Assembly: GCA_003280965.1 (NCBI GenBank)
Contig: QCDI01000001.1
Coordinates: 192,001-256,000, forward strand
Origin: Prochlorococcus sp. AG-355-B18
GTDB lineage: Bacteria; Cyanobacteriota; Cyanobacteriia; PCC-6307; Cyanobiaceae
Length of the DNA: 64,000 bases
Reading direction: 5' to 3'
In this document: in pieces, positions 15,850 to 57,307 of the stretch
Layout: the number at the start of each line of letters is the position of its first letter
How positions within the stretch are numbered: the stretch's first letter is position 1
Notes under the pieces: model-generated
Seen by the model: only the letters and a program-made list of their open reading frames with translations
Told to the model about the DNA's origin: nothing
Databases searched by the model: none
Translations under genes and position numbers: made by a program

Positions 15850-15920
15850 ATCAGAAACTCCTCACACACTTTTTTCTGATAACTTTAAAAGTACTCGACC
15901 GCAATGTTTGAGTACTTTTT
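15850..15920 (+). ncRNA. Yfr1/Yfr10-like sRNA
   Basis: Conserved Yfr1 motif ACTCCTCACAC (15857-15867) in the loop of an ATCAGAAA/TTTCTGAT stem, followed by terminator AAAAGTACTCGA..TTGAGTACTTTTT. Confidence 0.8.
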
Positions 15921-15999
15921 GTATTTTTTGCGATGTGACAGTTAAGATAGAGGCCTATTAGGCATTACATATTTTGGAATTAGGTGTGATATTAGAAAT

Positions 16000-16094
16000 G
16001 TGTGTAGGAGGAATTGATTTATTTCAGTGGAAACAAGGAAACACTTGATATAAATCATTTTTTAAAGATCTCTCTCTGAGGGATCTTTTTTTTT
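16000..16094 (+). ncRNA. yfr2: Yfr2-family (Cyano-1) sRNA
   Basis: 5' GTGTGTAGGAG, central stem with GGAAACAAGGAAACA loop, terminator AAAGATCTCTC..GAGGGATCTTTTTT. Confidence 0.88.
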
Positions 16095-54366: not shown

Positions 54367-54465
54367 GAGGGTAATGGATTTCGGTGTATAGATTGGGTCG
54401 ATCCTATACATCTGGAACATAGTTGTTTCTTTACATGGCTGTTGTAGGTCTATTGCCCTCGACCC
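54367..54465 (+). ncRNA. candidate structured RNA (three-stem junction plus pseudoknot)
   Basis: Stems 54367-81/54446-60, 54383-91/54404-12, 54419-26/54435-42 paired by hand; loop GGGTC complementary to the GACCC tail. Confidence 0.55.
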
Positions 54466-54477
54466 TATAATTATGTT

Positions 54478-54510
54478 GATTGACAGTCGATCTAAAATAA
54501 GGGGCAATTA
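54478..54510 (+). repeat. repeat A copy 1 (upstream of cargo gene 1)
   Basis: GATTGACAGTCGATCTAAAATAAGGGGCAATTA. Confidence 0.92.
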
Positions 54511-54525
54511 AATCCTTTCTTTATA

Positions 54526-54830: not shown

Positions 54831-54871
54831 AACATAAGTTTAGGCCTGATGAAACGCCTAGTACTTGCACC
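54831..54871 (+). repeat. repeat B copy 1 (downstream of cargo gene 1)
   Basis: AACATAAGTTTAGGCCTGATGAAACGCCTAGTACTTGCACC; 35/41 identical to 55291-55331. Confidence 0.92.
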
Positions 54872-54885
54872 GCTATATTAAATAC

Positions 54886-54921
54886 GATTGACAGTCGTCG
54901 ATCTACAATAAGGGGCAATTA
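54886..54921 (+). repeat. repeat A copy 2 (upstream of cargo gene 2)
   Basis: GATTGACAGTCGTCGATCTACAATAAGGGGCAATTA; differs from copy 1 by a 3-nt insertion and one substitution. Confidence 0.92.
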
Positions 54922-54931
54922 GTTTCTTTTA

Positions 54932-55309
54932 ATGACACACCAGCAAAAAAGCGTTTATATACTTTTTTTTATAATTTTTTTGATAGTTTTAATCGGTTAT
55001 TTATTGCAACCTGAAAGTGAGTATAAGGAGGCGGCTACAGTTGGTTTGATAATAAGTTCTTTTTTTATAATTGGTCTTCTTTCTAGAGGTGCAAGAGAAC
55101 AATTAGAAGAAAGAGGTGGAAAATCACGAGCAGATTCTCGAAATGAAAAATTATATGCCAATCCAGATTTAAATACTCGTAAATGGAATATTCATCAATC
55201 ACGTTTAAATAAATTTGGTAGATCACAATATAAAGGAACAATGTTTTATGTTGGCCCAAAAGGTGGGGTTTATTACATTACTTACAGAGGAACAAAAGTT
55301 TATTGCTGA
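54932..55309 (+). CDS. cargo gene 2: 2-TM protein with C-terminal PBCV basic-adaptor-like motif
   Basis: Two TM helices; YVGPKGGVYYITYRGTKVY resembles the GP(R/K)GGxYY..G.KxY motif. Confidence 0.7.
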   Translation: MTHQQKSVYILFFIIFLIVLIGYLLQPESEYKEAATVGLIISSFFIIGLLSRGAREQLEERGGKSRADSRNEKLYANPDLNTRKWNIHQSRLNKFGRSQYKGTMFYVGPKGGVYYITYRGTKVYC

Positions 55310-55331
55310 TGAAACGCTTACTACTTGCACC
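55291..55331 (+). repeat. repeat B copy 2 (overlaps the stop of cargo gene 2)
   Basis: AACAAAAGTTTATTGCTGATGAAACGCTTACTACTTGCACC. Confidence 0.92.
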
Positions 55332-55442
55332 ACTTCGTGGGTCCCTTTGACCTATATCTACGTGGGACGTCTGAAAGCTCTGAAATTTTCTAGCGTCAGC
55401 AATATATGAACTTAGACAGCGTTTAAGTCGATTTAGAGTAAA

Positions 55443-55694
55443 TTACTGTGATTTAGCGAGTTCTATGTATTTTTTAAGGTCATAATCGTTAATCGGAATC
55501 CAGTTGTTAGAAGTCAGATTATTTTGAATATGTTTGGCTAAAGTTACACCTTTAATAGCACCCATAAAAAGGTATTTTTGGTCATTTATGCGTCTTATAT
55601 AAGGGTCAAGTATTCCTTTATCTCTAAGTTGATAAATACTAGCTCTGGATTTAAAACCTAGACATTTATAAGCCTCAGTAAAAGTACAAAGCAT
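55443..55694 (-). CDS. HTH excisionase/AlpA-like recombination directionality factor
   Basis: TFTEAYKCLGFKSRASIYQLRDKGIL MerR/Xis-type HTH; directly downstream of the integrase. Confidence 0.7.
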   Translation of the reverse strand: MLCTFTEAYKCLGFKSRASIYQLRDKGILDPYIRRINDQKYLFMGAIKGVTLAKHIQNNLTSNNWIPINDYDLKKYIELAKSQ

Positions 55695-55723: not shown

Positions 55724-57079
55724 CTAATTATTTTCTGGTATGGAAGTTGCAAACATTATCTGCTTTTTCTTTTCTTCACTACTAATCCAATATTGATAGT
55801 GCTTTTTATGTGTTGCTACATCATGACCCATTGATTGTGCAGCTTCTTCTATAGATATATGAGAACATCTAGGATCAGTAGCTAGTCGTATTGCATAAGT
55901 ATGTCTTAGGTCATAAGGGGTTATTGGTTGTTTATTTGCAGAATTATCAATTAATCCTTTTTTATTAGGAATTGCAGCAAGTAATGGAGGCATTGCATTT
56001 GATAATCTTCTACCAATCCATTCCCCTAAATAATCGTTATTAATACATACCCCAAGATCGTTTAAATCATTGGGTGAAACATCTTTAGTTTTATCTATAG
56101 AACTTTTGATTATCATTGTTGCCTTACTTCTTAGACTTTTTTGCATACGTTCAAAATTCTCTAATAGATTATATTTTTTGATCCAATCAGGATATAGAGG
56201 AAAGGCATAATGTTCATTTTTACTCTTTGTTCTCCATGCACCAGGAATATATATCCACTTGTCAGCATCTTGTATATCTTTAGTTTTTTTAACTTTGCTT
56301 ATATGGAATACTTCATGGTTTCTTAGTCCATAACAAAGTTGAATAGCTAAACACCATTTTTCTAACTCGAATTGTTTATCTAATGAATCAAAATATTTTT
56401 CTGCTTCTTCTTTAGTTGGTATTCCTCTGATATTTGCAAATTCTTGGTCGGGTCTATATTTTTTTAGTTTTCTATTTTCTCTATTATGTTGTTCTCTTAA
56501 AAGTAATAAATTTGATTTAGTTATAAAATTAGGTTCATTTCCATTAATAGTTGATAGAGCTAATCTAACTTGCTCAAGAGAATCTAATCTATTTTTAAAA
56601 GGTCTTGATTCTATAGATTTTTCAAATACCCATTTTTTTATAGAGTTCCAATTTAAAGAAGTATTTGAGTTAATTAGATTATTTAAATCTGCTTTAGTAT
56701 TTTTTGCACTAGATCGTTTTTGCGTTTTATCTAAATAATTTACTGTAATTTCTTTTATATCTGACCAAGTATATAAAGGTGTTTCTTTTTCTATCTCTAA
56801 ATTTGGATTATCCAGAAATTGAAGTTGATCGAGTATAGGCATATCAATATTCCAATCATTATTCCCAACGTGTTCTATTAGTCTTGCAACTGCTAATACC
56901 TGATCTATATTTTCATATGCTTTTACTGGCTTTAATGAATATTGTTTATCAGTTTGTTTATCTCTAATACTTAAAAAAGGAGACTTTTTATACCTCCGAA
57001 CCATATATCTAGCTTCAATATCAACTAAAAAATCGATAACATCTTCCCAAGTCCTAGTTTTTCTGCGTGATCTTGTCAT
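55724..57079 (-). CDS. tyrosine recombinase/integrase
   Basis: YGLRNHE (R), TKSK (K), PYDLRHTYA (H/YxxR), MGHD..HKKHY (H, Y nucleophile); adjacent to tRNA. Confidence 0.92.
   Translation of the reverse strand: MTRSRRKTRTWEDVIDFLVDIEARYMVRRYKKSPFLSIRDKQTDKQYSLKPVKAYENIDQVLAVARLIEHVGNNDWNIDMPILDQLQFLDNPNLEIEKETPLYTWSDIKEITVNYLDKTQKRSSAKNTKADLNNLINSNTSLNWNSIKKWVFEKSIESRPFKNRLDSLEQVRLALSTINGNEPNFITKSNLLLLREQHNRENRKLKKYRPDQEFANIRGIPTKEEAEKYFDSLDKQFELEKWCLAIQLCYGLRNHEVFHISKVKKTKDIQDADKWIYIPGAWRTKSKNEHYAFPLYPDWIKKYNLLENFERMQKSLRSKATMIIKSSIDKTKDVSPNDLNDLGVCINNDYLGEWIGRRLSNAMPPLLAAIPNKKGLIDNSANKQPITPYDLRHTYAIRLATDPRCSHISIEEAAQSMGHDVATHKKHYQYWISSEEKKKQIMFATSIPENN

Positions 57080-57230: not shown

Positions 57231-57307
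<77 letters not shown>

Follow-up and report, generated by a model that had tools for sequence, protein, structure and literature searches.

What would an elaborate RNA fold be doing directly behind the stop codon of a capsid gene in a phage satellite? The question is raised by a motif in a 64,000-nucleotide stretch of the Prochlorococcus sp. AG-355-B18 genome (hereafter the window), where an earlier note, made by manual pairing, had proposed an unannotated, strand-specific satellite RNA structure with a pseudoknot, a proposal that covariation among homologues now bears out. Our preferred reading, to which we give a probability of roughly 60%, is that the motif is an antisense RNA that would block translation of the capsid of a helper phage at an internal ATG.

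The motif's host element is a PICI-like tycheposon, a Prochlorococcus phage satellite, which is truncated in the window (Table 1). Its intact relatives combine a protease-capsid gene of 535-546 aa with a primase/helicase, HTH proteins and an integrase, the replication module being VapE or AAA_25; no primase/helicase module lies beside the window's copy, where the replication genes are missing. PICI-like tycheposons are described with the same gene set, and Met-CAT is named among the island sites, in the available portion of bioRxiv 10.1101/2020.12.28.424599. The capsid gene stands without other virion genes, as a remnant in the window and as the full protease-capsid gene alone in the relatives. 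The 451-aa ORF next to the tRNA is presumably a tyrosine integrase, a label that we take from its position and a motif; it has no Pfam integrase match, the gene at the same place in one relative (L152) is 87% identical to it, and the counterpart in another (L040) matches Phage_integrase at E 0.0023 only. The same genome also holds a second, separate tycheposon fragment (G000 C1 97159-98433), whose AAA helicase is 92% identical to that of L041, and two known RNAs, Yfr10 and Cyano-1, lie elsewhere in the window at 15850-16065.

Table 1. Features of the satellite RNA motif and its surroundings, in window coordinates
Feature	Position	Strand	Remarks
3' remnant of satellite protease-capsid gene, ~171 codons	53843..54360	+	stop TAA 54358-54360
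P1 5' strand	54367..54381	+	6 nt behind capsid stop; compensatory AU/GC swaps
P2 hairpin	54383..54412	+	54383-54391 with 54404-54412; pair probabilities 0.52-1.0
P2 loop strand of pseudoknot	54395..54401	+	complement of tail
Rival weak hairpin	54414..54429	+	partly masks guide in free RNA; MFE fold, probabilities 0.82-0.88
Predicted antisense guide	54419..54445	+	covers P3 of the earlier note; predicted to pair with helper capsid internal start region
P1 3' strand	54446..54460	+	pairs with 54367..54381
Pseudoknot tail	54459..54465	+	continues P1 directly, 2-nt overlap
Multi-copy island repeat	54466..54525	+	TATAAT-like hexamer 54466-54471, imperfect palindrome 54478-54492, hairpin 54499-54518
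Excisionase-like HTH protein of element	55443..55694	-	HTH_17 E 0.019
Putative tyrosine integrase, 451-aa ORF	55724..57079	-	adjoins tRNA
tRNA-Met(CAT)	57231..57307	-	presumed integration site

The gene in front of the motif had been called simply the capsid gene; the motif does begin 6 nt behind its stop, and what precedes that stop is a 3' remnant only. The remnant matches Pfam Phage_capsid (E 5e-23) and is 87-96% identical to the C-terminus of Peptidase_S78 plus Phage_capsid proteins of 535-541 aa in the relatives. Capsid homology begins at the first base of the remnant, which is joined there to a host terminator, and the N-terminal capsid part was not found elsewhere in the assembly. The window's copy of the motif is probably a relic, lying as it does in a truncated element and being one guide base short relative to intact relatives.

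Immediately downstream of the motif lies an island repeat with many copies in its own genome, through which most of the matches arose when the motif, used as a query, hit 275 of 285 genus genomes. It recurs at 54873-54929, its elements include a hairpin and a T-run directly before an ATG, and it may be the PRE1 repeat; the copy beside the motif possibly supplies the 3' end of the transcript. In the window's class of satellites this repeat occupies the place of the cos-like motif of other satellites. Further along, repeated remnants of an MKRL-type signal-peptide gene start (54831-54874 and 55291-55334) flank two cargo ORFs, and a similar remnant is fused to the 3' half of the RNA in L009, which suggests cassette shuffling by microhomology.

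Within the motif, the two helices P1 (15 bp, four G.U) and P2 (9 bp, one G.U) are present exactly where the earlier note had drawn them, and the plus-strand fold is better than expected from composition, at -37.5 kcal/mol (z -3.04, one of 200 shuffles as good) vs -17.9 kcal/mol (z -0.53) for the minus strand. The proposed third helix, P3, exists as a possible pairing of 8 bp with four G.U and is neither favoured nor conserved: its pair probabilities are 0.06-0.11, vs 0.82-0.88 for the rival hairpin that overlaps it, and the three-way junction built on it fails among homologues, whose central region varies in length and fold. The G.U richness of P3 is accounted for by the predicted guide, which is rich in U and G and faces a target rich in A and C, as discussed below. 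The pairing of the P2 loop with the tail is there as claimed, with 7 bp and no G.U, and cannot coexist in full with P1, since both use 54459-54460; the fold can thus hold 13 + 7 or 15 + 5 bp, never both in full. That this is no ordinary terminator is upheld by the lack of a U-tract directly after the stem on the plus strand, and no plus-strand terminator was found between 53750 and 54600. A comparison with Rfam, which the earlier note had asked for, returned no match at gathering score in the window motif or in 17 homologous loci (tRNA only), the best sub-threshold match having an E of 4.6; Rfam 15, the release used, includes c4, ribozyme and riboswitch families.

Evidence that the fold is maintained as RNA comes from its homologues, which in genome and metagenome searches follow related satellite capsids as 17 close copies and a divergent set, with a spacer of 5-8 nt between stop codon and P1 in 24 of 25. 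On a tree of the 17 copies, which omits 11 weak fitted hits and the cut copy L073, the 22 pairs of P1 and P2 carry 13 compensatory changes that fall on the same branch; when partners were permuted, the mean was 1.0 and the maximum 6 in 2000 trials. The suspected strand-specific wobble bias extends across the family, with 34 G.U against a single A.C at the P1 and P2 pairs of these copies. A pseudoknot complement of 6-14 bp sits at the same offset in all 17 close homologues, and the helix recurs in four of eight divergent ones; loop and tail take co-varying forms in L100, L044b, L156, L080, L084 and L165, the p value of the loop-tail helix in any single copy being modest (0.0005-0.11). The middle varies in length and fold, yet keeps pyrimidine-rich motifs around a CAT.

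A model search of 151 genomes returned five hits, all of them copies already known behind a capsid stop. Among viral contigs, a strict RNA pattern gave no hits and a loose one 78, nine of which were given to the model without a match. An antisense ORF over the motif was ruled out, as it is not conserved. Contigs of a related allele that run across both capsid end and motif occur in three of four seawater RNA libraries, which shows presence only; contig depths over this stretch (108, 33 and 8.7) and over other listed pieces of the element (2-5.5) cannot rank the parts.

Of 24 capsid matches in the window's genus, 21 represent the ends of satellite capsids, one is from a phage, and the other two are missing the C-terminus; by inspection, a long closing stem that encloses further structure stands behind every one of the 21, and true phage capsids have plain terminator hairpins at the same place. 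Nearly identical RNA stands behind capsids that are only 46-55% alike, so capsid and RNA modules reassort. Several satellites (L162, L164, L092, L094, L401, L396, L399 and L405) carry other multibranch folds behind the capsid stop, which in the first three include a second long hairpin with a CATAGT motif in its loop; no target was found for the guides of L162 and L164. There are also capsid-less derivatives (L027, L052, L011, L026 and loose ends in further runs) that keep only the P1 3' half and tail, joined in L027 and L052 to the A-tract region otherwise seen in front of the capsid gene. At the other end of the gene, a conserved, unannotated acidic ORF of 41-44 aa overlaps the capsid start in L071, L040, L041, L042, L076, L097 and L100.

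What, then, could the variable middle recognize? Targets in the satellite itself were rejected, there being no consistent match beyond 12 nt at one excisionase start in one of 13 homologues; nothing clear emerged among 1811 host start candidates, and phage collections searched directly with the central region gave chance-level matches. The single phage fragment among the genus-assembly capsid matches is related to S-LBS1, S-CBS1 and S-CBS3 (44-46%), and the 80 closest viral loci (the best 80 of 383 that matched) carry TerS, TerL, a portal and a fused protease-capsid gene. They represent an abundant, marine, low-GC, S-CBS3-like group with a fused head gene of 826-916 aa (L574, L581-L660). Scanning with the commonest guide motif, of the L077 type, led to ATG-GAA-GAA, in frame and situated where this gene passes from its protease domain to its capsid domain, and the middle of the satellite motif reads as the complement of that ATG region.

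The phage site is itself conserved. In-frame Met-Glu-Glu is found in all 73 phage linkers read (the site being covered by 73 of 81 loci) and in 85 of 85 linkers of a second, largely overlapping sample; in 61 genes the three residues are invariant and neighbouring codons vary. Synonymous diversity near the internal ATG is 0.01 vs a mean of 0.33, a dip that is also seen further downstream and may be codon bias, so that we do not count it as proof. ATG-GAA-GAA would start a putative scaffold-plus-capsid product of 430 aa. A further in-frame Met lies 23 codons before this internal start. At the corresponding position, satellite capsids likewise carry a Met, with other sequence around it; this internal Met is conserved 365-382 codons before the stop, and the scaffold-like domain after it is much shorter than the phage's, so that a smaller capsid may be possible. 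The annotated first start of the helper gene (MANV) was set aside for the internal site. It ranks 12-42 of 49 in an unanchored test; anchored on ATG, it has the best energy among 22 candidates for 18 of 25 guides, with 120 of 1216 host starts equal to it, and it may be a secondary site.

The same phage loci offer a second link to the satellites. A genome-end motif opens 12 of the 15 loci inspected, about 170 nt before TerS, and is taken for the cos end; it scores above shuffled sequence in 10 of 30 satellite stretches. Neither the window nor L040-L045 yielded it, and within the window's class it occurs in L046 only. Together with the guides and the fragment of this phage group in a genus assembly, it leads us to regard the S-CBS3-like marine phages as the presumed helper, a candidate for Prochlorococcus.

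How specific is the pairing? With guides defined by structure and not by motif, and L156 left out (its interior is 8 nt), 16 of 29 beat 100 shuffles at p<=0.04, and 13 have no significant pairing with any sampled phage variant. The window guide (p 0.01) forms 24 bp at -23.8 kcal/mol, covering target positions -16 to +15 around the ATG; that of L002, with the extra base that the window lacks, reaches -28.6 kcal/mol, and the only other copy without this base follows a capsid frame open for just 225 codons. After opening costs, the net energy is about -6 kcal/mol for the window guide and -11 for L002. Pairing is weaker in all 10 cases in which guides were reversed or reverse-complemented, and the phage site beats all 1216 host start regions for the four guides tested.

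When about 830 windows per locus were scanned without an anchor in eight phage loci, 7 of 30 guides placed the site at the top in one locus or more, and the window guide ranked it 11-390 over the eight loci (p 0.06). That guide matches one variant class only, carried by 12 of 85 loci; in two loci chosen for carrying this variant, it ranks 2 and 8 of 870 windows, and the window lineage as a whole (L001-L004, L070) ranks 1-8. Two unrelated cyanophages contain windows that equal its energy, 3 among 1124 in one and 1 among 970 in the other. Since the site was discovered with the L077-type motif, that lineage is not an independent test; part of the L077 core recurs in L165, L084/L081 and L442, and the window lineage had no role in the discovery of the site. 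The register in which guides pair there differs between lineages, the window lineage using another register and another variant of the site, and L070 shows changes that keep G.U pairs. The predicted duplex covers the AUG and both flanks in most lineages, and in the window lineage the AUG falls in or beside an unpaired middle.

Eleven of the significant guides come with a readable internal Met in their own capsid gene, and for these self-pairing is 9-23 kcal/mol weaker than pairing with the best helper variant, a value that is the minimum over 17 variants; measured against the median helper value, it is weaker in only 14 of 21. Self-escape is clear for strong guides only, and in L389 and L077 the guide also matches, over 7-10 nt, the start of the full-length capsid gene of the same element.

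The antisense mechanism that we propose builds on three patterns seen in the sequences themselves, namely the covariation of P1 and P2, the in-step variation of loop and tail, and the complementarity to the phage site. The satellite capsid mRNA would carry the motif as its 3' UTR, from which a stable fragment might be released; P1, P2 and the pseudoknot would shield this RNA in a host that usually has no Hfq. Most Prochlorococcus strains lack Hfq according to the available part of PMC2518516, which fits a self-protecting scaffold with a long guide. Pairing of the guide at the internal ATG-GAA-GAA would occlude ribosomes on the helper capsid mRNA, so that expression of the satellite capsid would automatically lower the helper's capsid supply; the satellite's shorter capsid protein could then take the helper's portal, terminase and tails, and its own internal start would escape through its different sequence. 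A point against this reading is topological: with P1 closing the loop, 24 bp of duplex would put the RNA under strain, to be relieved only by cutting or opening it.

The motif might instead act only in cis, as an elaborated terminator or nuclease roadblock at the 3' end that stabilizes the satellite capsid mRNA, with the phage complementarity a matter of chance or a relic. Its fixed position just behind the stop would suit such a role, as would the plain hairpin and U-tract that phage capsids and Synechococcus satellites have here, the U-tract that ends P1 in some low-light satellite versions, and the 13 guides of 29 for which no target was found. We nevertheless think it unlikely as the whole account, for it leaves unexplained why several lineages pair, in several registers, with the same in-frame ATG region; a cis-acting stability role and the antisense role can also both be true. 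Pairing might, alternatively, trigger cleavage or decay of the helper late mRNA, or tune the ratio of protease to capsid, including the satellite's own. The AUG of the window lineage, in or beside the unpaired middle, and the own-start matches of L389 and L077 point in this direction, and SviR, in the available portion of its description, has outcomes that differ by target; with most lineages showing the classic geometry of occlusion, AUG and flanks covered, we rate this as distinctly improbable.

Still less probable is a feature of the DNA, namely a single-stranded fold, recombination site or promoter part that has captured an inverted scrap of phage sequence. It would account for the tail abutting a TATAAT-like hexamer, for the capsid-less 3' half-copies, and for minus-strand z-scores of -3 or below in 16 of 25 cores and several low DNA-parameter z-scores, values that are inflated by core boundaries chosen at the P1 ends. 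The 34 G.U against one A.C speak for RNA, as do RNA energies about three times the DNA energies, and the guide duplexes show bulges and wobble-keeping changes, unlike simple decay. Recoding stimulators stand at a spacing to the stop codon similar to the motif's, and this, with the pseudoknot, is what would recommend a recoding signal, a self-cleaving ribozyme or a packaging (pRNA-like) RNA. We give these almost no credence: there is no Rfam match, and conservation is lacking both in the junction bases and in any readthrough or frameshift product, the frame-0 extension being 0-47 codons in 23 copies. On the same grounds, Rfam and the junction nucleotides, no sign was found of a ribozyme, or of the immunity RNA like P4 CI or P1 c4 and the packaging RNA suggested in the earlier note.

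The preferred antisense reading has a near precedent. The nearest known system is SviR of the Vibrio cholerae PLE, which pairs with the initiation region of helper gp120, in the capsid operon, and lowers its translation independently of Hfq (bioRxiv 10.1101/2022.04.08.487710, in the portion available). Like SviR, the motif belongs to a satellite RNA complementary to the initiation region of a helper structural gene, here in silico and for 16 of 29 guides. Unlike SviR, which by that account is intergenic with its own promoter, it would form the 3' UTR of a capsid mRNA that the satellite itself encodes, and it has a pseudoknotted scaffold, lineage-variable guides and an internal in-frame capsid start as predicted target. 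Satellites are known to interfere with helper capsids by protein. PLE CapR, as far as its available description goes, likewise lowers helper capsid supply, as a protein and not as a predicted RNA acting on translation, and P4 Sid and SaPI CpmAB are protein capsid-redirectors; all three act on transcription or assembly, unlike an RNA on translation.

For the target, the closest parallels are lambda C/Nu3 and HFTV1 gp17/gp17.5, in which an in-frame internal start within a prohead protease gene yields an abundant assembly protein (bioRxiv 10.64898/2026.09.13.751334, available portion); the putative internal product here differs in comprising the scaffold domain plus the capsid. For the fold, the comparison is with flavivirus xrRNA. 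In its multibranch architecture and loop-to-tail pseudoknot, shortly behind a stop codon in the satellites, the motif resembles this class; it differs in its long P1, in the absence of an Rfam match, and in building the pseudoknot from the first hairpin, where xrRNA has a conserved three-way junction and uses the third arm, an arm that the motif does not conserve. The available text of the tycheposon paper names neither the interference mechanism nor the helper, and its main text, to the extent available, is without the terms ncRNA and non-coding (bioRxiv 10.1101/2020.12.28.424599). A literature search, which covered mainly papers outside subscription journals, without supplements, and Rfam as the motif collection, found no description of the motif RNA.

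We take the motif for a real RNA family, apparently undescribed in the literature searched, and probably a variant of the satellite anti-helper small RNA. The fuller picture, which we regard as an even bet on the sequences available, would be that of a pseudoknot-locked scaffold with an exchangeable guide in a capsid 3' UTR, shutting off the helper capsid at a hidden internal start in an arms race between guide and target RNA, with the guide and the genome-end motif naming the helper of capsid-type tycheposons. It would provide a compact, Hfq-independent antisense scaffold, and a rarity, a satellite RNA that represses a helper gene, the first within a capsid mRNA in the literature searched. 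A further prediction is that the fused protease-capsid genes, a widespread class, contain an internal start missing from their annotation; for the tycheposons of the most abundant phototroph, the analysis offers a candidate helper group, a precise 30-nt target and a possible mechanism of interference. If the reading is true, one transcript would both build the satellite's capsid and silence that of its rival.
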